Shown here in pieces: positions 3,001-27,627 of a DNA stretch of 64,000 nucleotides. The stretch is from NCBI GenBank assembly GCA_049322915.1, contig JBMOPW010000014.1:32001-96000 (forward strand). The letters run 5' to 3'. The stretch is from Candidatus Zhuqueibacterota bacterium (GTDB taxonomy: Bacteria > Zhuqueibacterota > Zhuqueibacteria > Thermofontimicrobiales > Thermofontimicrobiaceae). Every line of letters begins with the position of its first letter. Positions within the stretch are counted from its first letter, which is position 1. The notes beneath the pieces are model-generated. The model made no database searches, was not told the origin of the DNA, and saw only the letters and a program-made list of their open reading frames with translations. Position numbers and translations under genes: made by a program.

Positions 3001-6000
3001 CATCGAATTGGGCAATACGACGATTACAGCGGACGAAAACCTTGCGCTGTACTGCGCCGGTTACGATGCCGGCAACAATTATGTCGGAGACATGAGCGTC
3101 CAATGGTCTTCCAAGGGAACGTTAGTCCCGGCAGTTTTCGATACCGGCTCTGTGATAAATTTCATGCCGTCGAAAGCGCCGGCATCCGGTAAAATATATG
3201 CAGTTCATCCCACGGCAGCCGATGATTCCACTGGCACTATAGTGGTCAACCCCGGCGTACCGGTGGGAATCATCGTATTGACGCCAACGCCGGCAGTCAT
3301 TCCAGCTACCGGTACCAGCAGTTCGGTTGTGGTCTCGGATATCATTCGGGACGCTGAATTGAATGTCATTGCAAAAAATACGCAGTTCACGGTGACAGCC
3401 ACCCTGGGAACCCTCACAACGACCGATGTAAATCCCTTGTTGCCCAATATTCAGATAGCGGCCAATGATTCGGGAAAAATTCAGTTCACCCTTCAATCCA
3501 CAACTGCCGGCGGGACTGCCTATATCAGCGTGAGCAGCGTGAATGGCAGCGCGACCGGGAATACCACGGTGATGCTGAGTAATTTGAACATTGTCTCTGT
3601 CACCAGCACGTCTTTTTCTGTCTCCCAGGGACAAACGAGTGTGCCCGTCGATTTGGTTGTCGAGAATCTGAGCGCCAGCACAATTTCCAATTTGGCGTCG
3701 GGGTTGGTGTTCACGGGACCAGCGCCGCTATTCGAGAATCGCAACGCCGATTTCCCCAGCGTGATTCGAACCGATGGCATTACGTCCATTCCAAGCGGAG
3801 GAATTCGGACGCTGAAATTTCTCGTCACTGTCAGCGCAAATGCACGAACAGACTCTGTCACCATCGATGGCTGGATTTCCGGATTGATCAACAGCGTGGC
3901 CGTCAACGATACATTTGCACTGGCTCCGTGGAAATGGGTAGTGCAAACGCCACCCATTTTGAAGATTACCAGAATTTCCTCTCTGCTGACGGAAGTGAGC
4001 CAGGGCCGGACAGGTGTGAATGTCTCGATGACGGTGCTGAATCAGGGACAGGCAACGGCCAATGTCACGCTGGATACGTTGAGTTTCTGGTCCGTGAATT
4101 TATCAAAAAGCGTCACCGGGGAGTATCAAATTATTCCATCCATGACCAATCCCCAGACGATTCCAGGGACGAATGGGCGGGCGAAATTTGATTTCACTGT
4201 GAATATTGGCTCGGCAGCGACGCTGGGACAGGTGATTGTCAATGGCGAAATTCGCGGGACAGATGCCAACAGCGGCGCGCTGAAGACAGACAATTCGGCG
4301 GATACCACCCACGCGTGGGTGGTTCAAAATGCGCCGATTGTGGGCATCACTGGTTTTTATCCATCTCAACTGCAGGTGACTAAATCGCAGACTGTGCCGT
4401 GGTCGCTGACGATGATCGTTGCCAATAACGGCGGCACCGCAGTGAGACTGGACAGCGCCCGAACGTCGTTTCTGTTGGGCGGGACAGATGTTTCCGCAGA
4501 GTATACCGTCAGCAATCCCATTCGATTCGTGAAATCCGGGACAAATCTACTCGCTGGCGGGACAGTCGATACCCTGAAATACATCGTCACAAAAACCGGC
4601 GCCAGCGTTGGTCAGTTGACAATTCGGGGGATGATGTACCTCAGAGACATGGGAACTGGCAATCCGATCTCCGATGAAACCTACAGCGGTGTTTTGGTGC
4701 AGGAGCCGGCGCAGTTGAGAATTGTCACTATTTTACCCTCACAAACCAGCGTCACGCGAAACCAGGGGCAGGACTGGTTTGTGCGAGTCGTGCTGAATAA
4801 CGAAGGCGGTTCGGAAATTAGCATCGATACAAATGTCGCCAATACTTTTATCAGATTTAGCACCGGCAATGACTTTGTGATCAGGCAGCCTGATTCGTTG
4901 AGCAATGGTGGACTGTCCCTCGAAGCCGGAACTGTGGATACGCTCGTATTTACAATCGACGGCGCCGGCACGACTCCGGGGAATTGCATCATCTCGTCCC
5001 AGGTATGGGGATGGCAAACGACCAGCGGCGATTCAACGATTGCGACATTCACTCGCACTGCACCAATTCTGGTTCAGGAGCCGGCAAAGCTGCGCATTCT
5101 ATCGGTCGTGAGCAAAGCCCCCAATTTTCCAAATGTGAACAAAGCCCAGGTTTTCCCGGTTCATGTCACGCTGGAAAATAACGGCGATGATGAAGTCGCC
5201 AACGCGTACGCAAAACTGACATCCAGCGGCAATTCGATCGGGGATTCACTATCGCTTCATTTCCAGAATATCCCCGGCAATGGCGGAAAGAAAGAGCAAA
5301 TCCTGAGTATCAAGGCAGATAGCCTGGCAACGCAGCCGGAACTATTCCAGGTGGCCATCTCCCGCGCCTTTGCCCAGAATACCAACGAGCCGGCCGGCAT
5401 CACGCGCGAGTTGGCAGTTGATTCGACGGAGACCGTGATCATTCAAAATCCGGCGAGATTTCAGATCACGAAAACAGTGATGCCTGATTCAATTCTGGCG
5501 TCCCAGGTTGCATCTTGGAAAATAAAGCTGGTGGTGGCAAATAGTGGACAGGCGGGGACAGTACTGGAGATGCCTGGCGCGGATGATATTACGATCAAAG
5601 TGAATGATGTAATTCAGAGGGATTATTTCATTGAGCCGCCGACAGCCCTTCAGGGCGGCGGTCTGGAGTTGGCTGGCGGCAGCACGGACACGTTGATTTA
5701 TACCGTCTCCATCACCGGCAAGGAAGCCGGAAGCGCTGCGATGGAGGCGATTGTTCAATCCAATGATAAAAATGACCAGCATGTGCTCATCGCTCCGGGG
5801 AGATACGATTTTACAATTCGATCCTCGGCTGCGGTGCAGCTTTTCAAGACCGAGGCGATTTGCTTCAACTATGACGGAGAAAAAGGGCTGGTGAACCGGG
5901 GACAGGTTTTTCCCATTCGCGTGTCTGTGCAGAATCTGGGACGAAAATCGGTCCGCGATGTGATTGTCCAATTGACGACCAGCGGTAATTCGCACCTTGC

Positions 6001-8845
6001 GTCGAATCAATTGACGATCGACTCGATCAACTATAATGAAATTAAATATGCAGATTTTCAGATTACAGCCGACTCGGCGGCGGTCAATCTGAATGAATTA
6101 TTCACATCAGAGGTGCTTTCGGCCATCGAATACGACACAGGATTCCCTGCTGTCATAGACAACAGCGGTGATAGCCGGGCGCGCATTGCGATACATGATT
6201 CTGCCAGGCTTCAGATGAGCGCCTGGACGGAGACAGGGGATTCGGTCTACACAATCAGCCAGCAATTCACAGTGAATGTACAGGTGGCCAATCTGGGTGA
6301 ATTGCCCGCAGGTGTCGATGAATCCGGGCTGATTGGACTGTTCGTTCCTGAGAGTTATCGGATCATTGTCGGAGAAGATACTCTTGAAAATAATCATGTC
6401 CTCTCGTTTTTGCCGGGCGAAATACAGCAGTTCTCAATCCTGACGCCGGAGGTGGCGTCCGGACCTGACTCGCTGTTTGTTTCCCTTTTAAATACTCCCC
6501 GTGATAAAAACATCAACCAGCGGGCGCAAGTGGCGCGCGGGCAGGATACCATCCTGGTTCGAACCGAAGCATCGAATATATTGTACTCCACCTCAGTCGT
6601 GGCGCCGGACGGTGCATTGGACAAAATCGTTTCCACGCATCAATTGTTCAGAATTCAATCATCCATTCGGTTCTCAGGCAACCTGACGAATGTGGAGGCG
6701 ATTCTGAAATTGCCGGATGATATTGGCCAGCCGCAATACAGTTTTCAATTTCACAGCGGGCTCAGGGATACTGTTAAAGACATCGCGTCCCACCAGCCGG
6801 TACTGTGGGACATTGTTGCGCCGGACGCGCGCGATGAGCAATTCCGAAATTTTGAAGTGACAATCAGCGCAACGGAGAAGGGCAATCCGGTTCGGTTGTT
6901 ATTTCGGGATTCGGTGAATGTGAAAGCGGTGAATCGGGCGCGACTCAATTTGAATGCTGAAATTACATCCCCGGAAGGCGCCCGCGAGGGACGCCTGACG
7001 GTGGGGCAGAATTTTGAAATTAAGGCTACGGTTAGCAACATGGGGGATGCGGCGACTTTCGGTCAGGGCTTCCTGAAAATGAATTTGGGCTCTGCCGGAT
7101 TTGACTTTGCCGACACTTCAGAAACACACGTGAAACCGTTTGCCATTGATACAGCCGTGGTCTGGAATTTGAAAGCGCCGGCCGAGGTGACATCGCTCTC
7201 GTACATCACGGTTGTTTATGAAGACAAGCCGAACGATGAAAATACTGGCATGGATGCATGGACCAATGAAAAAGATGCCGCTTCGATCAGCGTGGAAACC
7301 GTGGAAGCGGGCGATCTGAGTCTGGAGATTTTCATCCAGGGACCTGAGGGCGCAAAGGACAGCGTTCTCTCCAGCTATCAGGAATTTGTCATCGGCGCGA
7401 CCGTGACTTCCGATGGTGTGAAAGACATCAAAGCGAATATGCAATTGCCGAACACATTCCTGTTTGCAACGGATGTCAAGCCAACCCAATCTGTGGAACA
7501 GGGCGAAACAATTCAATGGCGCGTTATTGCAGCGCCCGATTCGATGTCCCATGCCACGCTCAAGGTCACCTGCTGGGGCGATGATGAAAATGATGCGACG
7601 ATCCGCGTGGACGCCGCGCCGGTACAGATTGCCTTCAAGGTGGTGCGCCGATTTGAAGCTGTCGTCGACGCCAGAATCATTTCTCCACCGGAGGCGACTG
7701 ATAATGCCGTATCAGTAAATCAGGAATTCTTCATTCAGGCAGCGCTGCAGAATATCGGACAGGCCCCGGCAGTCGGGACTTGCACCTTCGAATTGTCGCT
7801 GCCGGAAGGCTACGTCGCCCTGAATCCTTTGGCTCAAACAGTTCAACCCACTGAAAACGTATTGTGGAAAGTGAAAGCCCCGGCAACGGCGCTGCTTGCA
7901 AAATCCATCGAGGTGAGAGTGCCGCCAAACCAGGGACCGGAAGACAACAACGCCGGAAAAGAAATTCATTTCTGGCTTGAAAAACGCGGCGACAATATTT
8001 CGATTATCACCAATCAGAAGACCGTTGTCGTGTCCAAACTGCCGAACCGTACTCCGAACGCGATCGTCAAAGGACAGCGAAATGTATCCATGCTGGGCCT
8101 GAGGATATTCAATCGCAGGGAGGATGAATATTCCAATAAGATTGTGTTGACCGGTCTTGAAGTGCGTTTGAAAAATAGACTGGGACAACCGATTGATCAG
8201 CCAGGCCATGCTCTATCCAGAATCGCGGTGACCAGCTACAGTGATGCGGGCAAGGTGTATGGCAGCGTCACTGATTTCGCTGCCAGTAGCCTCATCCCAA
8301 TTTATCTGGCCCTGCCGGATACAATTTATCCGGATGAGGCGGATTCTATCGACCTGGTCATTGATATCGCCCAGTCGGCGAGCGCCACAGATATAATGCT
8401 CAGCCTGGAAGCAGATTCGTCCATTTTAATTCTTGAGGCCAACACCCTGAATCAGCCGCAACTGACGGATTTGAGCGGGCAGACCGGCGCTGCGCTGGAA
8501 TTGGAGTCGGATTTCGCCGTCGTGCTTGGAGATAATTTGAAACAAACCTTCATGAATTATCCGAATCCGTTCGGAAGCCCGGATAGAAAGACCACGACCA
8601 TCACGTATTATCTGAAGGAAGACACCGATGTCGATATCAAGATCTACACACTGATTGGGGAACTGGTGTGGTCGCGATCATACAGGGCCGGCGAGAGGCA
8701 GGCTCGACAGGGAATTCATGACGGCGATGTGATCTGGGACGGGACGAATGACAGAGGCTACAAAGTATTGAATGGCGTGTATGTTATCTATTTCAAATCA
8801 GCGAAGGGCGAAACAGCAATGACAAAGGCGGCTGTTATAAAATAG
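2..8845 (+). CDS. Giant secreted/surface Ig-like repeat protein (>2940 aa, 5'-truncated by the window edge) with C-terminal FlgD-Ig/T9SS-type sorting domain
   Basis: Frame is open from position 2 (TGTSNDFNVNAA...). Nine ~97-aa S/T-rich repeats (F..G.WSG.VTIT) are followed by CARDB/Ig-like modules. C-terminus NYPNPF...IKIYTLIGELV...WDGTNDRGYKVLNGVY. Confidence 0.85.
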   Translation, partial: TGTSNDFNVNAAALNRFAIETITTQAAGEPFTIRLTAQDAFLNTTTQFSGKVNISDGTGTVSPTASGNFEEGRWSGNVVVSQAFVNNTISVVNQSGSQNGISNYFDVISSSVDRFVFNTISQQVAGASFIVSIQALDAAGNVVTNFNGTASLSDLTGTISPTTTANFSSGVWSGSVTITKSRTANQITVTSSGKAGNSNNFDVIPASLHHFTIENIPSPQGAGTAFQITVYAMDSYENRVTSFNTNASLSDGTGTISPTVTGNFSSGRWIGNVTITRSQTDVTITVTRDTKTGVSNIFNVSPGALSLFQISNISTQAAGEPFYITVTALDANSNVATHFSGTVNISDLTGTVAPTVSNNFDEGKWSGNVTISQVRTGNRITVVNSGGSQSGQSNTFDVISSDVDQFLISTITSPKTAGVPFEITITAVDADNNVVTSFTGTASLADQSGTIFPTTTTNFSQGRWTGNITLTKYWNNNNITVTSSGKAGISNNFTVLYNALDHYEFDTITSPQTAGTPFTIKITAKDFYNNIVYNHSTPVTLSDNSNTITPTVSGNFSSGSWSGAVTLTKRQNDVQITATGSGKTNQSNKFNVNSAVLHHFVLDTVTTQAAGEPFQLTVTAMDSYANIVSTFAGTVDISDLTGTISPQRSGSFLSGKWTGNVTITLVRISDRITVVRTGGAESGNSTYFDVVSSDVSEFTFDAITSPKTAGQPFTVRITARDDDNNVVNTFNGLLTLNDLTGTITPKTTGAFTNGIWSGDVKITKSYTNDKIVATGLGKSGESNLFTMNPGSLDHFIFQNITSPQRAGQSFEITVIAKDSMENTVTNFAYTANLSDNTGTISPTTTTNFTNGAWSDFVRITKKQNDVFITASRLNETGTSNLFNVNAGNLASLKVMDAAGGKGQEIGDKTITLDDKISMYAAGFDSFGNYSRDVFANWTASGTLDAPTPAQGTHTVFDPVAPGTAGKIRADSTGLLADSTGNISVGSIAYVKIRTAPNGVGIELGNTTITADENLALYCAGYDAGNNYVGDMSVQWSSKGTLVPAVFDTGSVINFMPSKAPASGKIYAVHPTAADDSTGTIVVNPGVPVGIIVLTPTPAVIPATGTSSSVVVSDIIRDAELNVIAKNTQFTVTATLGTLTTTDVNPLLPNIQIAANDSGKIQFTLQSTTAGGTAYISVSSVNGSATGNTTVMLSNLNIVSVTSTSFSVSQGQTSVPVDLVVENLSASTISNLASGLVFTGPAPLFENRNADFPSVIRTDGITSIPSGGIRTLKFLVTVSANARTDSVTIDGWISGLINSVAVNDTFALAPWKWVVQTPPILKITRISSLLTEVSQGRTGVNVSMTVLNQGQATANVTLDTLSFWSVNLSKSVTGEYQIIPSMTNPQTIPGTNGRAKFDFTVNIGSAATLGQVIVNGEIRGTDANSGALKTDNSADTTHAWVVQNAPIVGITGFYPSQLQVTKSQTVPWSLTMIVANNGGTAVRLDSARTSFLLGGTDVSAEYTVSNPIRFVKSGTNLLAGGTVDTLKYIVTKTGASVGQLTIRGMMYLRDMGTGNPISDETYSGVLVQEPAQLRIVTILPSQTSVTRNQGQDWFVRVVLNNEGGSEISIDTNVANTFIRFSTGNDFVIRQPDSLSNGGLSLEAGTVDTLVFTIDGAGTTPGNCIISSQVWGWQTTSGDSTIATFTRTAPILVQEPAKLRILSVVSKAPNFPNVNKAQVFPVHVTLENNGDDEVANAYAKLTSSGNSIGDSLSLHFQNIPGNGGKKEQILSIKADSLATQPELFQVAISRAFAQNTNEPAGITRELAVDSTETVIIQNPARFQITKTVMPDSILASQVASWKIKLVVANSGQAGTVLEMPGADDITIKVNDVIQRDYFIEPPTALQGGGLELAGGSTDTLIYTVSITGKEAGSAAMEAIVQSNDKNDQHVLIAPGRYDFTIRSSAAVQLFKTEAICFNYDGEKGLVNRGQVFPIRVSVQNLGRKSVRDVIVQLTTSGNSHLASNQLTIDSINYNEIKYADFQITADSAAVNLNELFTSEVLSAIEYDTGFPAVIDNSGDSRARIAIHDSARLQMSAWTETGDSVYTISQQFTVNVQVANLGELPAGVDESGLIGLFVPESYRIIVGEDTLENNHVLSFLPGEIQQFSILTPEVASGPDSLFVSLLNTPRDKNINQRAQVARGQDTILVRTEASNILYSTSVVAPDGALDKIVSTHQLFRIQSSIRFSGNLTNVEAILKLPDDIGQPQYSFQFHSGLRDTVKDIASHQPVLWDIVAPDARDEQFRNFEVTISATEKGNPVRLLFRDSVNVKAVNRARLNLNAEITSPEGAREGRLTVGQNFEIKATVSNMGDAATFGQGFLKMNLGSAGFDFADTSETHVKPFAIDTAVVWNLKAPAEVTSLSYITVVYEDKPNDENTGMDAWTNEKDAASISVETVEAGDLSLEIFIQGPEGAKDSVLSSYQEFVIGATVTSDGVKDIKANMQLPNTFLFATDVKPTQSVEQGETIQWRVIAAPDSMSHATLKVTCWGDDENDATIRVDAAPVQIAFKVVRRFEAVVDARIISPPEATDNAVSVNQEFFIQAALQNIGQAPAVGTCTFELSLPEGYVALNPLAQTVQPTENVLWKVKAPATALLAKSIEVRVPPNQGPEDNNAGKEIHFWLEKRGDNISIITNQKTVVVSKLPNRTPNAIVKGQRNVSMLGLRIFNRREDEYSNKIVLTGLEVRLKNRLGQPIDQPGHALSRIAVTSYSDAGKVYGSVTDFAASSLIPIYLALPDTIYPDEADSIDLVIDIAQSASATDIMLSLEADSSILILEANTLNQPQLTDLSGQTGAALELESDFAVVLGDNLKQTFMNYPNPFGSPDRKTTTITYYLKEDTDVDIKIYTLIGELVWSRSYRAGERQARQGIHDGDVIWDGTNDRGYKVLNGVYVIYFKSAKGETAMTKAAVIK

Positions 8846-19165: not shown

Positions 19166-19219
19166 ACCTGAATAGTAGGCATATCAATGACAAACACAGC
19201 GTTAGAAAAGCTGAAAGTC

Positions 19220-19248
19220 AATATATAGAAATATTGCAATAATGTCAA
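19220..19248 (-). promoter_or_regulatory. Sigma-70-type promoter of the plsC-fak-plsY operon
   Basis: Minus strand TTGACA-17 nt-TATATT, 55 nt upstream of the plsC ATG. Confidence 0.7.
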
Positions 19249-19327
19249 GAAAAAAAATGGCTGTAGGACAGTCGTGCGGTCTGGCTTGTAAAAAATGAAA
19301 TTGGCATAAGGAAATAGCTGGCCCACA

Positions 19328-21940
19328 TCACTGAAAGAAGATCGGTGCAAAGCCCGTGAAATTCCGGTCGAAAGAAGCTTTCGGGCGGGAGAGATTTTCA
19401 AAAAGCAACGACGCTGAATAGCTGTAGGAAATGAGATAGTCAGACATCAGAAAGGAAAGCGTCCGATAGTCTTCAGTCTGCGGCGCTGGCGGCTGAGCTA
19501 ACAATGTCTCAAAGGGAAGATAACCCAACAGGCCATCCGGGATAATAATGAGGCGATGGCCGTACAGGTATGATTTTACGGGCGAGATTAAACAACAATA
19601 AAGCGTATGAGCGGCTATGCTGTAATCAGTAAAACTTTGTTGCAGTAATCCACTTCGCATTCGGTCCATTGATGCGGTGAAGCTATCATCGATGGAAATT
19701 GACCGTATTTCGAATGTAGTTTTGGTGATTGTAAAAATGAACAGCGTGCTATCGCTGAGGTAATACTCGATGATTCCTGTGTCTGAATCCAGTATCTTGT
19801 CCTGAATTTGTTTTGCGGTGGCGTTGGCGGTTTGATATGTTAAATTGTAATAGGCAGGGTAGTTCAGTTCGAAGGTATTGACAAGGCTTTCATAGTTTCG
19901 TTTTAACTGAAATAGCCTGTTTTGCAGTGACCTCACTCTTTCGCTATCTGCATCGGTTCCCTTTTGTGTTTCATCAAACAGGAGCTTGTCCGTGAATGAA
20001 AGATCGATTTTCAACTGTCGTTCAGTGTCCAGAAGGCTATCCGGGATGCCGGCGAATTTCCTGGCGTTGGATTCGATGAGCGCCTGATGCAGCGCGCCGG
20101 ACTTACTTTTCTCGGCAAAGGAGAATGCAACTTCTTTCAAGTCGTGCGCATGGGTGATGGTGTACAGCTCAAACACACTGGTAATTGCCTGACCGTAGAT
20201 GGAATGCATTTTTTCGCCCAGGAATAATTTCAAATTCTCTGATTTATAGCCGGTTCGAATGTGTTCAATGAGATCGGAAATTAAGGTGTACGTTACAACG
20301 GATGCCTCCAGATTTTCGATATGACTTCTGTCGTCCAAATATAATTCATTGAACAGCTCCGCTTTTCGGGTCAGGATATCCAGCAGTCTGGTCTCCTCGT
20401 TGAGCTGTGTGAGAGGAGGATTGACATAAACATTGTCGGAATCGAACCCTGGAAAAAGCGCGTGCAAGGCGCGTTGCAAACAGGATAGCGCTTTCCTGAT
20501 CCGATGTTGTCGGTGATAGACTTCAGCGATTTGCTGATACGCTTCTGCAATGAGCGGATGATTGTTGCCCCAGATACGTTGACTCAGGCTCACGGACTTA
20601 TTGAGATAATGAAGCGCTATGTTAAAATCGCCCAGATCTGTATAGAGAATTCCCATATTGTTGTAAATAATTGCCATGAGTGAATGCTGCTGTGTTGAAA
20701 GCTGCCTGGCCATGGAGAGCGCCTGCCTGTAATACTCAATCGCCCGATTAAAATCCTTTTTCAGCGAATAAATATTTGCAATGTTGAGCTGGCAGCGGAC
20801 AATATCCGGGTGAACCCGTTGCTCCATGCGCAGTTGCACGTTAAGGGATTGCTGGTAGTAATGAAGCGCCTCATCGTACATCTCCTTGTTTTTAGAGATT
20901 ATTCCCAGGTTGTTGTACAACGATGCAATTATCGGATGGGTGTCGCTAATCGTCACCATCACCAGCGATAACGATTTCTGAAAGTAAGCCTGCGCGTCTT
21001 CGAGGTTGCCTTTTCGGAGCCAGATAGTACCCAGATTCAGGTAATTTCCAGCCAGCGATGGGTGATTGCTGCCAAGTCTGTTCTGCACAATGCGGATGGA
21101 TTTTTCATAGCACTCAATGGCGCGGTCATAATCCCCTTTGGTGAAATGAAGCACGCCTAGGTTGAGGTAGCTGTTGGATACGTCCGGGTGGTTCTCCCCG
21201 ACTGCCTCCAGCCGGATGGCAAGTCCCTTTTGATAATAGGCCATCGCATTCTCGAAATCCTCTCTGGCAAGTGCGAGAATACCTAAATTGACATAACTGT
21301 CAGCGACCAAAGGGTGCGTCTGTTCATAGACTTTTTTTCGGATGGCTAATGCATCTTCATAAAATTCAGCAGCCTTGTCATACTGACCATAAAAATAGTT
21401 GACAATGCCCAGTCCGTGATAGCTATTCGCCAATTCTTCATCGTGGGCAGAATCGGTTTTTTTCAGTAGGCAAATTGCCTCGTGAAAAGCGCTTTCAGCC
21501 GCGGCTAAATCACCGCGCTTCTGAAAAATTATGCCGCGGGCGTTGAGGATTTTTACAGCCGGAATTTCATTCGTCGAAGTGAAAAGGGCGAGAATATGGG
21601 ATGCGCTGTCCACCTGGCTTTTTGCATCTTCATAGCGGCCCGATTTCACGAAGTTTGTGCTCTTGCCGCAGAGGCAATCGATTGCTTTTTCCCATTGCTC
21701 CTCTCGGATAAGTTGGTATAAAGCCAGATCATAATAATAATTAGAACTGTCGTAGAAGGCGGCGGTATGCAGCTTAGCCGCTCGCTGTAAACATTCAACC
21801 GCGGTAATCACGTCAACCCGGGTCTGATGCGACTGAAGCATCGGTACGTTTCTTTGATTTTTTATAGAATAGACGAGTCCACTGGCAAGAATGACGGTGA
21901 GCAAAATAGCAGTATATTTCCTGTAGTGTGGCTTTTTCAT
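19328..21940 (-). CDS. Exported/membrane-anchored TPR protein ending in the N-terminal half of a CHAT domain
   Basis: N-terminal hydrophobic helix; ~9 kinesin-light-chain-type TPRs (HP..A.SY.NLG); EKSKS; IIEYY; LIIIPDGLLGYLPFETL; ends SYSYSASLL...FTGFAPIFFQ without the catalytic His/Cys. Confidence 0.9.
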   Translation of the reverse strand: MKKPHYRKYTAILLTVILASGLVYSIKNQRNVPMLQSHQTRVDVITAVECLQRAAKLHTAAFYDSSNYYYDLALYQLIREEQWEKAIDCLCGKSTNFVKSGRYEDAKSQVDSASHILALFTSTNEIPAVKILNARGIIFQKRGDLAAAESAFHEAICLLKKTDSAHDEELANSYHGLGIVNYFYGQYDKAAEFYEDALAIRKKVYEQTHPLVADSYVNLGILALAREDFENAMAYYQKGLAIRLEAVGENHPDVSNSYLNLGVLHFTKGDYDRAIECYEKSIRIVQNRLGSNHPSLAGNYLNLGTIWLRKGNLEDAQAYFQKSLSLVMVTISDTHPIIASLYNNLGIISKNKEMYDEALHYYQQSLNVQLRMEQRVHPDIVRCQLNIANIYSLKKDFNRAIEYYRQALSMARQLSTQQHSLMAIIYNNMGILYTDLGDFNIALHYLNKSVSLSQRIWGNNHPLIAEAYQQIAEVYHRQHRIRKALSCLQRALHALFPGFDSDNVYVNPPLTQLNEETRLLDILTRKAELFNELYLDDRSHIENLEASVVTYTLISDLIEHIRTGYKSENLKLFLGEKMHSIYGQAITSVFELYTITHAHDLKEVAFSFAEKSKSGALHQALIESNARKFAGIPDSLLDTERQLKIDLSFTDKLLFDETQKGTDADSERVRSLQNRLFQLKRNYESLVNTFELNYPAYYNLTYQTANATAKQIQDKILDSDTGIIEYYLSDSTLFIFTITKTTFEIRSISIDDSFTASMDRMRSGLLQQSFTDYSIAAHTLYCCLISPVKSYLYGHRLIIIPDGLLGYLPFETLLAQPPAPQTEDYRTLSFLMSDYLISYSYSASLLFENLSRPKASFDRNFTGFAPIFFQ

Positions 21941-21941
21941 A

Positions 21942-22751
21942 TCATTCCACTGTGTGCGTGCGAAATTTTTTGATCAGCAGGAAGGCTGAAATGATGATGA
22001 GGACAATGGCTGGAATAATCCATTGCCAGTGATGACGCGCTGTACTGAGTTCCAGGGGAGATGTATCGCCGGTCAGGACAAAGCCAGCCCAGTAGTAGGG
22101 CGCTGATTTGATCTCTCCGGCATGGCGAAGATAGTTCAGTTTTGCGGTGCGAAGAGCAGCATCTTTGCTGGAACCCCGAATGAGTTCGGCATAGAAATCG
22201 GCCATGATGTGAGAAGTTGATTTGTCATCGACCGGCCACAAGCTCATCGCGATGCTCGGGCACCCTGCGTACATGAAGCTTCGCGCCAGGCTCATGATGC
22301 CTTCTCCCTGGACAAGTTTGCCGCTGCCGGTGTTGCATGCGCTTAAAACAGCCAAATGCGCGTTGAGTTCCAGATTGTAAAGCTCATAAGCGAACAGCTT
22401 ACCGTCCTCGGATAATGTGTCTTTCGGCGAGAAGGCTAAATAGCTGTACATCGGTTGAAGTTCATTGATAATCGTATGCGTTGCGAGATGGAGGATGCGC
22501 GACTTCGGGGCGTATTTCTTAAAATTCGCTTCGGTGGCCTGACGGCGCAGGAATACGTCTCCGCGAAGCAGATTGTCGATATTGCTCACCTCTTGTTCTG
22601 TCCAGGTCAAATCGTGAAGAGTTGCCTGGAGAGGCTCGGACAAAGGTTGATGAAAGGAGAGTTGCTCCTGAGCGAATAGCGAGTAATTTCCGGCAAAGAT
22701 CATTGCCAGAGCCAGCGCGAGCAGGCGCGTGTTAATCATTGGCATTTGCAC
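21942..22751 (-). CDS. CHAT (caspase-like) protease catalytic C-terminal half with its own signal peptide and C-terminal TM anchor
   Basis: Signal-like LLALALAMIFAGNYSLFA; LHLATH (His), VLSACNTG (Cys), GEG, SLWPVDD, PYYWAGF; TM WIIPAIVLIIISAFLLIKK. Confidence 0.92.
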   Translation of the reverse strand: MQMPMINTRLLALALAMIFAGNYSLFAQEQLSFHQPLSEPLQATLHDLTWTEQEVSNIDNLLRGDVFLRRQATEANFKKYAPKSRILHLATHTIINELQPMYSYLAFSPKDTLSEDGKLFAYELYNLELNAHLAVLSACNTGSGKLVQGEGIMSLARSFMYAGCPSIAMSLWPVDDKSTSHIMADFYAELIRGSSKDAALRTAKLNYLRHAGEIKSAPYYWAGFVLTGDTSPLELSTARHHWQWIIPAIVLIIISAFLLIKKFRTHTVE

Positions 22752-22888
22752 ACGAAGTAATGAAAATTCATAAGTGGGTCATTTCAGAAAAATGCTCACC
22801 GCGAGTCGATCTTGCGGCATCTGGAAGGAAACTGAATGTTAAACGCCCTGAAAAATTGAATTGTTTCTCACCCGAATGATGGTCCCGG

Positions 22889-23662
22889 CTATCGCTTTGT
22901 AAGGAGGTTCAAAATTTGTTCGCTCTGCTTTCTGTATTTGCTTGCCGCAGATACTGATTGAAATACCGCCATTGCCTCTGGAATTCGTTCCAGCCTTACC
23001 AGCGCCAGCCCCTGGTACCATTGCGCAGGATCGCGGTAGGGAGAACTGTGGGTTTTCATAATAGCCTCGAAGTGAGGAAGCGCCAGTTGTGGTGTGTCGT
23101 TGATTAGCTGGCACATCCCGGCATAAAAATGGGCGCCGGCGTTTCCTGGCTCGTGCGCTAATAGCTGATCCAATAATTGCTGGCAGGCGGCAATCTGATC
23201 TTTTTCATAGTTCAACATCGCCTGCAAGAAGAGACCCTGACTGGACTCTCCCCTGACGATCGGCGTGATATTCGGGTAAGCCTCGAAAAACTGATTGAAA
23301 ATTCGTTGGTGTGTCTGGTTTGTTTTTAGCAGAAGAAAAGAAGTCGCCAGAGCAACGATAACAAGCGCTGCCATTCCGTACCGCAGCATTGGGTTGCGCC
23401 AGCCTGATTTGGTGCGGCTGAGCCGTTGAGAGACCGAAGTCTGGAGGGCAGCTATGGCAGTGCGGAACTGTAACTCCCCGGCGCTTTTCTGAAATCCCTC
23501 GATGGCATCAGCGCAAAATGGGCAGTGGCGGATATGCAAGTCAATTTTCTCTTTCTGCTCAGGCCGAATGTTGTGTCTTGAATATGAAATGAGTTCATTC
23601 AGCGACAGACAATCCCCAACCGTGGACGCTTTGTCCTCGCAAGTAACATTTTTTTCATTCAT
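22889..23662 (-). CDS. Zinc-binding anti-sigma factor with TM helix and extracytoplasmic TPR domain
   Basis: HIRHCPFC (HxxxCxxC ZAS motif), one TM helix, C-terminal TPR-like helices; overlaps the sigma gene. Confidence 0.85.
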   Translation of the reverse strand: MNEKNVTCEDKASTVGDCLSLNELISYSRHNIRPEQKEKIDLHIRHCPFCADAIEGFQKSAGELQFRTAIAALQTSVSQRLSRTKSGWRNPMLRYGMAALVIVALATSFLLLKTNQTHQRIFNQFFEAYPNITPIVRGESSQGLFLQAMLNYEKDQIAACQQLLDQLLAHEPGNAGAHFYAGMCQLINDTPQLALPHFEAIMKTHSSPYRDPAQWYQGLALVRLERIPEAMAVFQSVSAASKYRKQSEQILNLLTKR

Positions 23663-24254
23663 CTTTTCGGAATTCCCTATCTTGAAGTAAAATATTCTTT
23701 AGGTTCCGCCTTCCATTCTGGATATGACTCTTCACTTTCCCGACCTCAAATCCGGTCGTGTCAGCGATATCCCTGTATGATTTCTTTTCGAAATAAAAAA
23801 GCAAGAGGCATTGGCGCTGCGCTTCAGTCAGTTGATTTAATGCGGCATGTACTTTCGATTCGATATCGCTTTGACCACTATTAAGAGTATCAAAGTCTTC
23901 AAATTCCATAAAAATATTTTTAAATTTTTCAGTTTTTTTCTGCTGAATATTTTCCTTCGTTTTATTTTTTCGAAGGTTATAGAGGCAAAAATTTTTTGTA
24001 ATTGAATACAACCAGCTACTAAAATTGGTCACCGGTTGTATTTTCAGCTTGGTCATGACTTTTTCGAAGATTTCCAGAACCGCATCCTTGCTGTCTTCCT
24101 CATTCCCGAAATATTTCAGGCAGGCGCCATAAACAAGGTGACAATAGCGCTGAAACAGCTCTTCAAAAGCAGCAATATCGCCGTGATCCCTGAACATCTG
24201 AACCAGTTCACGATCAGTTTTTTTCGTCATGAAATTTTTAAAATAGAATCGCAC
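23655..24254 (-). CDS. ECF RNA polymerase sigma factor
   Basis: AFEELFQRY, DAVLEIF, FSSWLYSITKN, SYRDIA...VKSHIQNGRRNL. Confidence 0.93.
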   Translation of the reverse strand: MRFYFKNFMTKKTDRELVQMFRDHGDIAAFEELFQRYCHLVYGACLKYFGNEEDSKDAVLEIFEKVMTKLKIQPVTNFSSWLYSITKNFCLYNLRKNKTKENIQQKKTEKFKNIFMEFEDFDTLNSGQSDIESKVHAALNQLTEAQRQCLLLFYFEKKSYRDIADTTGFEVGKVKSHIQNGRRNLKNILLQDREFRKDE

Positions 24255-24287
24255 TGATTGTTCTCCGTTTTCGCTGGCGCATGAATT

Positions 24288-24361
24288 TAGTATAATAAAA
24301 AATTAGTCTCGATGCAAGATTTAAAAATAAATTTATGGAAAATCACTTTATCTTGCATCTA
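24288..24361. promoter_or_regulatory. Divergent promoter region with 10-bp inverted repeat GATGCAAGAT (24311-24320) / ATCTTGCATC (24350-24359)
   Basis: Minus strand TTGCAT-16-TATACT toward the sigma gene; plus strand GGAAAA...GCATCTA (ECF-like) toward the secreted-protein genes. Confidence 0.45.
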
Positions 24362-24447
24362 TATAATGCATCCTAATTTTTAGCGAACAACCGTCTATAA
24401 AATAAATAGTACGGTATCAGTTCGAAATAAACTGACGGAGGAGAACC

Positions 24448-27400
24448 ATGTCACAAAAATGCTTTCATTTTTTGCTGGCAGCCTGTCTGCTGTTCCCGAT
24501 AGATGGCTACGGATTTGATAAGCAGGCGAAAACAAAAGCATCATCCACGCTGATAAAGCGTGATTCAGCCGTGATTGACGCCAACCAAATTTCAATGGTG
24601 GTGATGAACAATGGTACATTTGGCCGCGATCCGATGTCAGGAAGCGGAGCATTTTTCTTTCCAAAAGGAACGGATAAAAAATTACTCTATACGGCAGGAA
24701 TAGAAATCGCCGGAAAAGTGAACGGAGACATTCGAACTGCCTGCGCAAATTATAATGTCGAATTTCAGCCAGGAAAAATTTTATCGACCGGAGTGGCAGA
24801 CGATCCTGATTTGGAGAAATATCGAATTTACAAAATCAAACCGGGCGATTCCGCAGATCCGGCAAGTCCGAATTATAACATCGATTATGCCGAGTGGCCT
24901 GTCGAGGATGGCGCGCCGGTGGACGCGTCGGGAAGTCCGCTTATCCTCGGCGACCAGACGATGTGGCTCGTCATGAATGATGCAAATGAAAGCCTTCACT
25001 CCGGCTGCTATAACACAGAGCCGTTCAACCTTGAATTGCAGTTGCTGGTCTGGGCGTTCGACGATGAATCGACTGCAATGGGTAAAACTGTTTTTATGCA
25101 ATACACGCTGATCAATAAAAGCCAGAATTCTATCGAAGATGCCTATGTCGGGATTTGGTCTGACGCAGATGTGGGCGACTCCTTTGATGACGCCCTTGCC
25201 TGCGATACCACGCTGGATTTGACCTATGCCTACAATGGAGATGATAGCGATATGATGTACGGGACTGATATCCCGGCTGTTGGGATATGTTTGCTGCAAG
25301 GCCCTGCTGTGCCTTCCATCGGCGAAACAGCATTTCAATTTTTGCATATTCCAGTTTTGAACGCGCGGAATTTAAACATGACCTCAACCAGCGTCTATTA
25401 CTGAGCGCACGAACGATTCAGGGATCCTGAATATACGAGTCGCGGTGCGATTCAATTGTATGGCAATTTTGAAGGATTGGATTTTTTAGGCGATCCAACA
25501 GTCGATTTGTCTACTGGAGAGAATTCTCCTTTTATGAACAGCGGGAATCCTGTTTTTAATACCGGCTGGCTGCAGGACCTCTATATGAAGCCGTGCGATT
25601 TATATTTCCTGCAGGGCAGCGGTCCATTCTCACTCGCGCCTTTGGATACGCAGCGCGTTGTTTACGCAATCATTGTTGGTCATGGAGAAACACGACTGGA
25701 GAGCGTACTGGAATTGAAGCGCAATACAAATTTTATCAGGGATGTCTTTCGCAATGAATTTCAGATGAAAGCCTGGACAGAAACCGAGGTGCGCGTACCC
25801 TCCCAATCCAGGATGGAAATGGCGATTCGGTCAAAGGTGGAAACTGAGGTTGGTACTCAGTCCATTCAGGCGGATTTGCTCACGTACAGCGATTCCCTCG
25901 TCCGAACCATTGATCTGTACGACGATGGGACCCATGGCGATGCTCTAGCCAGCGATTATATTTTTAGCCATGCGCTGACGCTTGATGCGTTGCACCAGGC
26001 GCTTTACATCAACCTTCGAATCAAAGCCGTAAGCGGGAAAGAATATTCTTTCTTGCACGCTGCTGAAGACATCGCTGCGATTTATCCCGATGTTTTTATC
26101 TCTGAAATTGATGTGGCTGCGGATCATTTGAACAATGATGGAAAAATCAACCCCGGCGAGAATGTCCGATTATGCTTCCAGATTAAAAATGAACTGCCTT
26201 TTCCCATCACGTCATTGAATGTGCTGGTGCTACTGGATACGGCTCTTGTACAGGGCAATCCGGAGCATTTCTTTTTTAAGAATGTCGGGATGAATGAATT
26301 TGCGGAGATGGACTATGATCCAAATGACGAGTCGAGCTTTTATGAATTGGATGTCTCTCCGAATTTCCTGGCAGAAAATCCGTCAAATGACAGGATTGAT
26401 TTGAATGTCAAGTTCTATGTCAATGAACATCATATCTGGGATCAGAAATTCACCGTCTCATTGTCGGTTCAACCGCTGGAGCATATTCCCAATCTGGTAA
26501 TCCCTGCCCATATTTCCGGCTATAGCAGCGCCACGTTTGAAATCAGCGTCATCGATCCTGATCAGCTTACCGGGCATACCTATGCAATTACTGTGAGTGA
26601 TTCCATCAATGAGAACGGCGATCCGGGCTTCAATCTCATCGATCAAACATTGGGAGATACTTTGCTCAAACGTCACGAATTGCCGGACACCTATGCCTAC
26701 AATATTCCTATCACAGATGGATTTAAAGTGACCAGAGCCGTTCTGCCCGAAGTAGAACTCAGCGGGCATTTCGAGTCTTATTCCGGAGATGATTTGCGGC
26801 CATTTTATGGGATTAGCTACGACGCCAGTCTGTCGCCATCGATGGTGACATTCGGCGACGCGATCCCTGAACATTATTGCCCGGTGGAAATCGAATTCAC
26901 CAATCGCGTTGATTCCAGCGGTGTGGTTGGCGCTCTGCTTGGCCAGAGTGGATTTCAGCACACGGTATCTCCGCTGCACGGCATAGTCGGATTTTTCCCC
27001 TGTGGAATCAATGTCTGGAAAATTGTCAATAATCAAAGAGCCGGACGGTTGAACATCATCTTCCAGGAAGAATCGCCGTCGCTGCCAGCCTACGATGAAA
27101 CCTGGACTCCCGGCGAATGGCTTTATATCATGGCCAGCAATTACGATGCAACCGGGCAATTGTATCTGGGATTGACGGAAATTCCAATGGGCAGTCTGCT
27201 TTATAAAATGAATCTTTCTTTGAGAAGAGCGGAAAGCGCCGCCGGCATCGGGGATAAATTATATTTTGAACGTTGCTTTCTACCCACAGTTGACGATATG
27301 TGGTTATTCTCTCCCACAAACATTCTGGATGATGGGAATCGGCTTCCGACGCGATTTGAGTTGTACCAGAATTACCCCAATCCATTCAATCCCACGACCA

Positions 27401-27627
27401 CAATTCGATTTTCGATTCCGAAGCAATCACAGGTCAGTTTGAGAGTTTACAACATCCTGGGACAGGAGGTCGCGGACCTGTTCAATCGTATTGCTGGGCC
27501 CGGCGACTATGCTGTGAACTGGAATGGAAAAGATCGGTTCGGGCGGTCAGTTGTTTCAGGTATTTATTTTGCCAGATTTGAGACAAGTGCCGGGACGAGG
27601 TTGATAAAAATGGCGTTGATTCGATAG
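24448..27627 (+). CDS. Secreted protein with C-terminal FlgD/T9SS-like sorting domain, interrupted by an in-frame TGA at 25402-25404 (candidate selenoprotein, or nonsense pseudogene)
   Basis: ORFs 24448..25404 and 25456..27627 are in the same frame, joined by TGA plus 17 sense codons (AHERFRDPEYTSRGAIQ). The joined 1059-aa product is colinear with the adjacent paralog across the junction. Confidence 0.85.
25405..25450 (+). promoter_or_regulatory. SECIS-like hairpin directly after the in-frame TGA
   Basis: Upper stem ATTCAGG (25416-22) / CCTGAAT (25426-32) with loop GAT starting 18 nt after TGA; lower stem CGCAC (25406-10) / GTGCG (25445-49). Confidence 0.5.

Follow-up and report, generated by a model that had tools for sequence, protein, structure and literature searches.

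According to our analysis, two adjoining genes in the window (the whole stretch of 64,000 nucleotides under study) are very probably the two-gene form of a circularly permuted, inner-membrane-anchored and periplasm-facing TPR-CHAT protease. Their products, a catalytic subunit of 269 residues and a sensor/scaffold subunit of 870 residues, most likely form one two-subunit enzyme, judging from the conservation of the split, from conserved motif residues in both halves and from a model of the complex. Sequence comparison indicates that the reversed order of the CHAT parts is a trait of the family, common to sister genera, and not peculiar to this locus. Its probable place of action is the cell envelope, next to a sigma/anti-sigma switch.

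One CHAT domain in two adjoining genes

The pair and its parts are placed as follows.

22671..22751, minus strand: catalytic-subunit N-terminus resembling a signal peptide, residues 1-27 (...NYSLFA), from sequence and hydropathy
21942..22751, minus strand: catalytic-subunit ORF, 269 aa, GTG start; contains LHDLTWTEQEV, LHLATH and VLSACNTG
22476..22478, minus strand: codon of His92, putative catalytic histidine in the LATH motif, invariant in alignment A1
22335..22337, minus strand: codon of Cys139, putative catalytic cysteine in the LSACNTG motif, invariant in alignment A1
21972..22028, minus strand: TM helix 1 of the catalytic subunit, residues 242-260, followed by a KKFR tail, from sequence
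21941..21944, minus strand: gene junction, with TGA at 21944-21942, a single spacer T at 21941 and ATG from 21940
19328..21940, minus strand: sensor/scaffold-subunit ORF, 870 aa, C-terminal end ...FTGFAPIFFQ; N-terminal TM (residues 9-26), TPR array, middle region, C-terminal CHAT N-part
19331..19615, minus strand: CHAT N-part, residues 776-870, strands LIIIPDG (797-803), ISYSYS (837-842) and FTGFAP (861-866)

Both ORFs, their coordinates and the TGA-T-ATG junction, as reported in the first-pass annotation, were borne out on the minus strand. The junction reads GTG GAA TGA T ATG AAA, and owing to its one spacer base the 870-aa gene lies in a different frame from the 269-aa gene; the almost abutting stop and start suggest translational coupling of both genes. 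The public gene call takes an ATG at residue 5 (22739) as the start of the catalytic subunit, which gives 265 aa. The assembly across the junction was also checked: in a second assembly, made from run X1, positions 19200-24300 fall within one contig of 14,159 bases at word depth 84 with zero differences, X1 being probably the source sample, so that this assembly is no independent data. A second genome of the genus has the same split, which does give independent support.

The claim that the two proteins hold consecutive parts of one CHAT domain agrees with their coverage of the Pfam CHAT model PF12770 (289 positions, cut-off 24 bits), which is complementary and without overlap. Residues 42-229 of the 269-aa protein correspond to positions 97-289 (E 4.3e-50, 171.2 bits), and residues 776-849 of the 870-aa protein to positions 3-69 (E 1e-5, 25.6 bits, barely over the cut-off); the weak match is backed by the same region matching whole-CHAT relatives strongly. 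Such complementarity is far beyond chance. An N-part followed by a C-part in one chain does not occur here, the C-part being encoded by the upstream gene and the N-part ending the downstream one. Besides CHAT 3-69, Pfam recognises TPR_12 in seven stretches of the 870-aa protein, which aligns almost end to end with the region behind the TM hairpin of single-chain homologues.

H88, H92 and C139 are invariant in alignment A1 of the catalytic part (26 rows). His92 aligns with the histidine of LATHG in DdvA of Myxococcus xanthus, which is the catalytic H862 according to the DdvA paper (PMC11506125), and Cys139 aligns with the cysteine of AACEGG, in our own reading the C907 of that paper. On the other side of the cut, P801 and P866 of the CHAT N-part are invariant, and D802, P809, F810, E811, Y839 and A865 nearly so, in split, permuted and ordinary relatives alike.

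Export helices were judged from sequence, hydropathy windows and homologue layout. By these the 870-aa protein has a TM segment at residues 9-26; the single-chain permuted homologues begin with the same kind of signal-peptide-like N-terminus as the catalytic subunit, whose TM helix 1 equals the first helix of their TM hairpin. The predicted helices and the homologue layout support the extracytoplasmic location proposed earlier for both proteins, with type-I anchoring predicted for the catalytic product (269 aa) and type-II anchoring for the sensor product (870 aa).

A permuted family and its two-gene members

Single chains with the parts in the same permuted order are found in sister genera of the family, in genomes G010 (1125 aa) and G005 (1141 aa), and G011 has a permuted orthologue too, truncated at a contig end. 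Segments were mapped by phmmer with both window proteins against 150 representatives and 101 further loci, and some members had the homologous segments in the order A-B, others in the order B-A. A permuted chain consists of a signal peptide, the CHAT C-part with His/Cys, TM1, a short basic cytoplasmic loop, TM2, the TPR array and the CHAT N-part; ordinary relatives have an export signal, the TPR array, a complete CHAT domain and a C-terminal TM. Pfam sees CHAT in two stretches on the permuted single chains, with profile positions 93-289 at the N-terminus, and on the ordinary P0053 and P0019 in one C-terminal stretch (positions 3/4-289). Permuted chains end directly after the conserved GFAP, whereas ordinary relatives continue with a variable linker of 10-25 residues.

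The split site, both in this genome and in the congeneric G001, is at the position of the basic cytoplasmic loop between TM1 and TM2 of the single-chain forms. From the permuted single chains of sister genera and from the cut in this loop it follows that the pair is best read as the two-gene form of the permuted family. It had been argued that reversed order together with an extra signal peptide excludes a simple event; this argument is not supported, since both are already present in the single-chain orthologues of about 1125-1141 aa, and, with such a single-chain ancestor, the split needs merely a stop and a start in the TM1-TM2 loop.

Within the same bacterial group, ordinary TPR-CHAT proteins with a membrane anchor (about 950-1150 aa) are homologous in every segment, with 40-55% identity in the CHAT C-part; they share the GFAP and LxxLxWxxxE motifs and the C-terminal TM, and often have an ECF sigma or anti-sigma gene nearby. 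Unlike them, the family described here has CHAT cut after GFAP, the C-part moved forward behind a new signal peptide, and the old C-terminus joined to the old N-terminus by a TM hairpin, and in this genus the chain is cut further into two genes.

When related genomes were searched for the same split, it was found in G001 (262 aa + 850 aa; identity 61% and 51%; a gap of 38 nt versus 1 nt here) and in further loci, both genes being adjacent and intact in G001, L048-L050, L061, G162, G068, G070 and G071. Among 103,575 cluster representatives, the best 150 comprise 12 permuted single chains (one of them a fragment classed by eye), 5 complete split-type and 127 ordinary-order proteins, 3 with at least two CHAT C-part matches and 3 without an assigned class. 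Among 130 classified short homologues, the window's own protein counted, 26 are of complete split type, several of them on contigs of 65-367 kb. A close match was present in 41 of the 167 genomes of a phylum sample, and the 30 loci read there divide into 6 split, 5 permuted single-chain and 19 ordinary ones, so that the permuted/split family occurs in 11 of 167 genomes. The split genomes (G000, G001, G162, G068, G070, G071) belong to three families, one of the three split lineages depending on the unpublished genome G162.

For the direction of evolution the trees give at best moderate support (SH-aLRT 82-91). A branch with SH-aLRT 91 parts the permuted and split rows from 11 ordinary rows in the tree built on full-length sequences (27 rows x 1127 columns); the G000 and G001 pair groups with the single-chain P0003 (SH-aLRT 82), and the split clade L048-L050 stands apart. 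The concatenated CHAT tree gives 97 to a group of 10 permuted rows plus this pair; in it the permuted members fall into two groups on a weak backbone and the pair's clade is a polytomy. In the tree of the CHAT C-part, split-type P0083 and P0114 are placed among ordinary proteins.

This rearranged-domain family does not seem to have been described, as no account of a CHAT permutation or of its two-gene form was found in the full-text literature, most subscription journals being outside the coverage. With it the CHAT/caspase-like proteases gain a naturally occurring circular permutation as well as a naturally occurring two-gene form, the cut lying elsewhere than in the known p10/p20 swap. It also marks the loop after the GFAP strand as tolerant of a chain break and the membrane hairpin as a route for bringing two halves together, both of which may be of use in studies of CHAT activation and in split-protease engineering. 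In databases the CHAT C-part pieces bear the name 'CHAT domain-containing protein', and for annotation both pieces are better read as subunits of one enzyme.

Proposed assembly of the halves

Modelled on its own by AlphaFold2, the 269-aa protein has a mean pLDDT of 86, and the best PDB matches of this model by Foldseek are DdvA, Csx29, SAVED-CHAT and separase (E 8.7e-8 to 1e-3; 110-204 alignment columns, TM 0.33-0.47 on query length, covering the C-part only). DdvA is the closest solved structure (E 8.7e-8), and its residues 836-977 are also the sole PDB sequence match of the catalytic half in a profile search.

A complex of residues 690-870 of the 870-aa protein with residues 31-240 of the 269-aa protein was modelled with an ipSAE of 0.84 in each of three runs, against 0.00 for the best of three controls. 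Among solved complexes 116 of 157 reach this ipSAE mark, as do 2 of 215 mismatched pairs, a calibration that holds roughly at best for this model, built on our own alignments. At least 92% of the contacts agree between runs, and the partner pLDDT, at least 76, dropped to 51 once the other chain was swapped for an unrelated protein. Strands of both halves are interleaved in the model, with an interface of about 200 contacts, and the closest contacts are strand-to-strand (sensor 836-839 with catalytic 225-228, and sensor 861-864 with catalytic 86-89). The pass may reflect memory of, or likeness to, solved single-chain CHAT folds, and, since the catalytic half alone also folds confidently, modelling cannot prove a need for the partner.

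We propose that, after separate export, the last approximately 100 residues of the sensor subunit would complete the caspase-like sheet with the N-terminal strands that the catalytic subunit lacks, one of them lying beside the His-bearing strand and another beside the last strand; with such strand donation the active domain would be a constitutive heterodimer. The two-subunit protease envisaged in the first-pass annotation agrees with the conserved split, the conserved motifs and the complex model, but its activation through regulated assembly found no support. A switch of this kind, where the subunits stay apart in the membrane and the fold is completed only on sensing a signal, would be feasible with two chains that are exported and anchored separately, and the complex model lets the halves fit together. 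We consider it very unlikely nonetheless, as the halves are permanently joined in single-chain relatives, which makes constitutive assembly the more likely of the two, and as both forms exist within one family of genomes, so that the covalent link seems functionally neutral; the interleaved interface is typical of co-folding and not of reversible docking, and the TGA-T-ATG junction suggests coupled synthesis. Somewhat less improbable, though still doubtful, is a broader suggestion, namely that a natural 'split protease' has arisen here from a caspase-like enzyme, and that the CHAT fold bears a break ahead of its His-bearing strand well enough for lineages to have moved repeatedly between a permuted single chain and two exported, membrane-tethered genes, with the free ends at the break, or a catalytic subunit supplied separately, being part of how an envelope sensor is switched on; for instance, the C-terminal strands of the sensor might dock into the catalytic half, or withdraw from it, on a signal and in this way control the ECF sigma factor.

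Could the two proteins be independent, the shorter a self-sufficient minimal CHAT protease and the longer a separate TPR protein with a vestigial CHAT-like tail? The confident model of the 269-aa protein alone would fit this, as would about 10 related proteins of 231-241 aa that consist of a signal peptide and a CHAT C-part without TM anchor. However, the 269-aa protein lacks roughly the first third of the CHAT profile, the tail of its neighbour retains motif residues common to complete CHAT domains and always ends 3-6 residues past GFAP (bar one longer-tailed representative), and the genes adjoin in every split locus read, which together leave independence extremely unlikely. Hardly credible at all is a broken, non-functional TPR-CHAT remnant or a misassembly. 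Frameshifted ordinary CHAT genes are indeed known in relatives (two adjacent frames in L021, L032 and L040), but here both frames are intact in a second species at 51-61% protein identity and with a different spacer, the residues of the catalytic site and of the N-part show little or no variation, 26 complete split-type clusters exist, some on contigs of more than 100 kb, and the second assembly of the probable source run is identical base for base at depth 84.

The sigma/anti-sigma neighbourhood and related proteases

Upstream of the pair the following features are found.

22889..23662, minus strand: membrane anti-sigma factor, 257 aa, with H-x3-C-x2-C at residue 43, a TM near residue 98 and a periplasmic TPR part
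23655..24254, minus strand: ECF-type sigma-70 factor, 199 aa as listed (Pfam Sigma70_r2, Sigma70_r4_2); an ATG further downstream may be the actual start
24324..24361, minus strand: central part of a block that precedes the sigma gene and is conserved in a three-genus DNA alignment; candidate regulatory site

The sigma factor scores 89 bits against NCBIfam sigma70-ECF (cut-off 42.9), and its gene overlaps that of the anti-sigma factor by 8 nt; the latter protein has weak TPR matches in Pfam and a weak NCBIfam anti-sigma match under the cut-off (E 3.5e-4). In 11 of the 12 permuted or split loci examined, sigma and anti-sigma genes immediately precede the protease on the same strand, and such a pair is directly upstream in 10 of the 11 phylum-sample genomes carrying the family; within 3.7 kb upstream of the permuted gene of G011 both are absent.

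By analogy with DdvA, the enzyme could plausibly work with this ECF sigma/anti-sigma pair as a site-1-type protease which, once activated by a signal, would cleave the anti-sigma factor in its periplasmic part, a reading we put forward tentatively. In the DdvA/DdvS system of M. xanthus (PDB 8ROT; PMC11506125) there are likewise a periplasmic TPR-CHAT with a His/Cys dyad, an ECF sigma factor and a zinc-motif transmembrane anti-sigma factor; the difference is that DdvA has the anti-sigma and a normal-order TPR-CHAT in one chain, whereas here the anti-sigma is separate and CHAT is permuted and split. On the DdvA-like model such CHAT-dependent cleavage of the anti-sigma factor would set the sigma factor free. 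In that paper CHAT cleavage within the fused DdvA is itself a proposal, the dyad mutants behaved as wild type, the signal for DdvA is given as not known, and DdvA is said by its authors to lack a three-helix motif and to form a dimer (PMC11506125).

The same enzyme may have another job, acting on other envelope or secreted substrates, such as neighbouring T9SS cargo, or serving as a sigma-controlled suicide or defence effector. We regard this as rather unlikely, although one permuted gene has no sigma pair, T9SS-sorted proteins beside the sigma gene are conserved in three genomes, and CHAT proteases of defence systems (Craspase) reportedly cut other targets. Against it, the sigma, anti-sigma and CHAT genes retain their order and strand in 11 of 12 loci, some of which belong to distant families of the phylum, and the nearest solved structure is an anti-sigma factor with the same domain.

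Craspase TPR-CHAT (Csx29), SAVED-CHAT and separase resemble the enzyme in having a caspase-like CHAT fold behind a TPR/helical sensor (Foldseek E 1e-6 to 1e-3), but they are cytoplasmic single chains of normal order, with neither membrane anchor nor permutation, and are activated by RNA-bound Cas7-11, by cyclic nucleotides and by securin removal, respectively. Mature caspases are p20/p10 two-chain enzymes, in which one caspase-like sheet is made of two polypeptides; their chains arise by proteolysis of one normal-order precursor, whereas here there are two genes, separate export and a cut elsewhere in the fold. Caspase-fold parts in swapped order reportedly have a further precedent in engineered 'reverse' caspases-3 and -6. 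In type III metacaspases a p10-like part precedes p20, and circular permutation is discussed as the mechanism (PMC3734836); those parts change places at the p20/p10 boundary, behind the catalytic Cys, in one soluble chain. Here, in contrast, the cut precedes the strand that bears the His, a stretch of about 800 residues made up of TM hairpin and TPR separates the two parts, and these may be encoded by separate genes.

Having the sensor, the catalytic part and the anti-sigma factor on three chains offers a way to ask whether periplasmic CHAT proteases trigger ECF sigma factors. The conserved block at 24324..24361 holds in this genome an inverted repeat, GATGCAAGA ... TCTTGCATC, and its pattern has a single occurrence in the 6.25-Mb genome. 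T9SS-sorted proteins adjoin the sigma gene, an arrangement conserved in three genomes.

A CHAT domain encoded by two genes in swapped order

According to our reading, four minus-strand genes stand in a row and encode a sigma factor, an anti-sigma-like membrane protein and the two ORFs that share the CHAT domain.

The four genes, in order of transcription
23655-24254, minus strand: ECF-type sigma factor (gene reading of the window)
22889-23662, minus strand: 257-aa membrane protein with an H-x3-C-x2-C motif, a TM helix and a TPR tail, overlapping the sigma gene by 8 nt
21942-22751, minus strand: 269-aa ORF, the small subunit, with the CHAT C-part (Pfam)
19328-21940, minus strand: 870-aa ORF, the large subunit, with TPR and the CHAT N-part (Pfam)

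The first-pass annotation had described the last two ORFs as consecutive parts of one domain, the later part being encoded first, and this observation is exact. Residues 42-229 of the 269-aa protein correspond to CHAT profile positions 97-289 (Pfam, E 4.3e-50), and residues 776-849 of the 870-aa protein, preceded by seven TPR_12 stretches (Pfam), to positions 3-69 (Pfam, E 1e-5; 25.6 bits, where the cut-off is 24); the expected complementary coverage, free of overlap, is thus found, and the junction of the two ORFs is TGA-T-ATG. A terminator-like minus-strand site was not found between the four genes, an uninformative result, as overall counts of such sites were about those of shuffled sequence. 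The small protein has hydrophobic segments at residues 1-27 and 242-260, compatible with a cleaved signal peptide and a C-terminal anchor, respectively, and the large one has a segment at 9-26 that fits an N-terminal signal anchor. Judging from the sequence and its homologues, both CHAT pieces would be located in the periplasm, because the basic residues KKFR and KKPHYRK would lie on the cytoplasmic side.

H88, H92 and C139 do not vary across an alignment of 26 CHAT C-parts (A1). P801 and P866 of the large subunit are invariant and D802, P809, F810, E811, Y839 and A865 nearly so among split, permuted (C-part first, in one chain) and ordinary (TPR, then whole CHAT and a C-terminal TM) relatives, and since these motif residues are kept across all three, the tail of the large subunit is under the same constraint as complete CHAT domains. 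The best PDB match of the modelled small subunit is the Myxococcus xanthus anti-sigma factor DdvA (8rot_A, E 8.7e-8), followed by Csx29, SAVED-CHAT and separase, and a profile built from A1 matches only DdvA among PDB sequences, at residues 836-977 of 991. The CHAT domain of DdvA is 702-991 according to its paper, with H862 and C907 (PMC11506125), from which the small subunit would make up roughly the last 60% of the domain.

For the prediction of a complex, the large subunit was cut to residues 690-870 and the small one to 31-240, and A1 and an alignment covering the CHAT N-part (A2) served as input. The proposal that the two proteins rebuild one caspase fold finds partial support here: the strands interleave in the model, with an ipSAE of 0.84 in three of three runs against 0.00 in the best of three controls, and the mark applied was attained by 116 of 157 solved complexes, against 2 of 215 pairs that were mismatched, a calibration which is only rough with custom alignments. 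Between runs, contacts agree to at least 92%. Partner pLDDT is no lower than 76, and goes down to 51 once the other chain is swapped for an unrelated protein. The large subunit is predicted to add strands on both edges of the small subunit's sheet, because the tightest modelled contacts join 836-839 (ISYSY) to 225-228, the last strand of the small subunit, and 861-864 (FTGF) to 86-89, the strand leading to His92. On the other hand, where relatives of a fold have been solved, its halves can pass such a prediction from the memory of the model, and the small subunit alone is also modelled confidently (AlphaFold2 mean pLDDT 86).

Permuted single chains and the origin of the split

When the 269-aa protein was searched against 41 related genomes, a genome of the same genus, G001, was found to encode the pair as well, as proteins of 262 aa (61% identity) and 850 aa (51% identity) from genes separated by 38 nt and preceded by the same sigma and anti-sigma genes. 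Next best are single frames from three further genera within the taxonomic family, of 1125 aa in G010, 1141 aa in G005 and at least 809 aa in G011, where a contig end interrupts the gene. These single chains start with a signal peptide and the CHAT C-part, which contains LATH and LSACNTG; two TM helices with a basic loop of roughly 10-15 residues between them follow, then the TPR array and finally the CHAT N-part, and the chains end in ...GFAPVNF. Pfam places two CHAT stretches in them, with profile 93-289 at the N-terminus, and a single C-terminal stretch (3/4-289) in the ordinary proteins P0053 and P0019. In ordinary proteins GFAP is followed by a variable linker of 10-25 residues and then by LxxLxWxxxE (26 C-parts aligned). 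Because the permuted proteins stop just past GFAP, and their mature N-terminus begins within the position of this linker, the family is, as far as sequences tell, a circular permutation of CHAT. The arrangement is real and conserved, and adds a new structural variant to a protease family already known.

The TM hairpin would represent the former C-terminal TM joined to the former N-terminal export helix, and in the present genus the chain would have been cut within the cytoplasmic loop of this hairpin. From a permuted ancestor, the split would need only a stop and a start in the short loop. It had been argued that no simple frameshift could produce such an arrangement; as the single-chain relatives are already permuted, the argument does not hold for the split itself.

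A second assembly, of sequencing run X1, gave one contig of 14,159 bases with a word depth of 84, identical across 19200-24300, and the junction is to this extent confirmed, but X1 is probably the source sample, and its agreement is therefore not an independent support. Run X2 (a cave metagenome, share 0.14) gave short contigs only, from a related strain, and none of them spans the junction. Independent support comes from G001 and the other split lineages, where the two-gene form that the first-pass annotation advised to look for is indeed present. Read-through or a frameshift was considered and rejected: the downstream gene is offset by +1 and 1 nt away here, yet it stands in another frame 38 nt off in G001 and 4 nt off, after TAA, in locus L061, and in other frames in L048-50. 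That all split junctions differ argues against a conserved frameshift or read-through, and a conserved recoding signal at the junction does not seem plausible from these sequences.

In a C-part tree (198 rows, FastTree), 17 of 17 permuted and 9 of 11 split rows are in one poorly resolved region, and the split-type P0083 and P0114 are placed among ordinary proteins. A quick search with concatenated N- and C-parts (58 rows by 588 columns) groups ten permuted rows with the pair of the source genome (G000) and G001 (SH-aLRT 97, with a polytomy inside the group) and, with a weak backbone, leaves L037 and the split clade L048-50 outside this group. The full-length tree (27 rows by 1127 columns, quick PMSF, ordinary rows rearranged to permuted order for alignment) has one branch (SH-aLRT 91) with all permuted and split rows on one side; here G000/G001 go with P0003, a single chain (82), and the split L048-50 are in a clade of their own. 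These trees give moderate support to a single origin of the permutation; our reading is that at least two independent fissions followed, probably three or more; alternatively, single chains may have arisen from a two-gene form by fusion.

P0006 and P0001 (2061 aa) are tandem fusions of two TPR-CHAT units. The former (1163 aa) runs from the end of a CHAT N-part through a C-part, a pair of TM helices and a TPR array to a complete CHAT and a C-terminal TM, and would resemble a duplication-fusion intermediate of the classical route to circular permutation, which, for a single record without genomic context, we take as a lead only.

Distribution of the permuted and split forms

A search of 1.84 billion cluster representatives returned 103,575 matches, the best 150 of which were classed by mapping both window proteins onto them. 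The ordinary order, mostly with a C-terminal TM, accounts for 127 of these; 12 are permuted single chains (one of them a fragment classed by eye), five are of complete split type (signal peptide, C-part, TM and stop in 264-304 aa), three (P0001, P0006 and P0014) have two or more C-part matches, and three are undecided. A length-restricted search gave 426 short homologues at E <= 1e-30. The best 120 were classed together with 10 short proteins from the representative search (130 in total), by criteria that are crude, into 26 of complete split type, including the protein of this window, 39 fragments of ordinary proteins, 25 N-truncated and 30 other. Several split-type proteins sit on contigs of 65-367 kb. 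About ten of the "other" class (P0160, P0161, P0163-P0166, P0170, P0174, P0177 and P0178) are composed of a signal peptide and a CHAT C-part in 231-241 aa without a C-terminal TM, and may represent the catalytic subunit in soluble form; one of these sits on a 69.8-kb contig.

Among species genomes the search returned 79 loci, with five split (G001 among them) and two permuted single chains. The phylum sample comprised 167 genomes, of which 41 had a match at E <= 1e-45; 30 loci were read, and 21 weaker matches were left out. The split occurs in six of the 30 (G000 and G001 in family f1, G162 in f10, and G068, G070 and G071 in f22), the permuted single chain in five (G010, G005 and G011 in f1, G060 in f21, G077 in f24) and the ordinary form in 19. 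As G162 is unpublished, the f10 case rests on one genome.

In a record titled Candidatus Polarisedimenticolaceae (Acidobacteriota), L094, a 201-aa CHAT C-part frame directly precedes a TPR-containing frame (5992-7435), a possible case of a split or permuted form that arose independently in another phylum. P0004 (451 aa, on a 1.5-kb contig) has a C-part very close to that of the permuted P0003 behind an unrelated N-terminal domain (PF08885, precomputed annotation), and the record itself may be chimeric or a fragment. The phylum of this genome has only 167 species genomes in the sampled collection, yet close relatives are titled "Cytophagia", "bacterium" or "Calditrichota" at NCBI, so the names under which these assembled genomes are public do not seem reliable.

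Link to sigma factors and genomic surroundings

Of the 12 permuted or split loci that were examined, 11 have sigma and anti-sigma homologues immediately upstream on the strand of the CHAT genes, all but G011. A sigma or anti-sigma homologue can also be found within 6 kb of some ordinary TPR-CHAT genes. In the G011 locus (L027, 2429-6162), the permuted single-chain gene of that genus without these upstream genes, the neighbours are ORFs of 207, 348 and 400 aa, by eye kinase-, membrane transporter- and aminotransferase-like.

In full-text literature searches a permuted or split CHAT domain was not described, and a periplasmic TPR-CHAT combined with sigma factors was found only in the DdvA paper (PMC11506125); DdvA is the only studied relative. 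It is an anti-sigma factor that itself carries the TPR-CHAT, whereas here the anti-sigma is a separate protein. Its authors propose signal-induced self-cleavage as a site-1 step ahead of RseP; they also report that dyad mutants behaved like wild type, and that the signal is not known (PMC11506125). A precedent for swapped parts in a caspase fold is given by type III metacaspases, in which p10 comes before p20; a paper on them considers that circular permutation may account for this order, and also cites reverse caspases made by engineering (PMC3734836). Unlike the CHAT split described here, the metacaspases are cut elsewhere in the fold, within one soluble chain.

By analogy with DdvA, we tentatively propose, giving it slightly less than an even chance, that the CHAT complex cuts the separate anti-sigma upon a signal and so releases the sigma factor. 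The TPR subunit would sense an envelope signal, the dyad of the small subunit would be moved into register, the periplasmic part of the anti-sigma would be cleaved, and the sigma factor would be freed. Such a biochemical role would be plausible. It had been suggested that the protease is active only when its subunits assemble; since single-chain and two-gene forms alternate among close relatives, we regard the complex as constitutive and not assembled on demand.

Three genera share a conserved block of some 60 bp ahead of the sigma gene (24255-24447 in the window, core 24324-24361), with a 9-bp inverted repeat in this genome, GATGCAAGA / TCTTGCATC. It may be a shared promoter or operator of the sigma operon and the divergent genes; in the sequence of this genome the block matched solely its own site, and the search gave no regulon.

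Plus-strand features
24448-25404, plus strand: 318-aa protein without a family match, divergent from the sigma gene
25456-27627, plus strand: 723-aa protein with a T9SS sorting tail, divergent from the sigma gene
56205-63998, plus strand, continuing past the window end: giant ORF with two CHAT matches, 2598 aa in the window and a 2829-aa open frame in the genome

The 318-aa and 723-aa genes are conserved beside the sigma gene in G000, G001 and G010, and may be members of its regulon or merely syntenic. The giant ORF has one partial CHAT match (profile 176-288) and one complete (4-289), and frames of about 2750-2880 aa with these matches recur in many related genomes.
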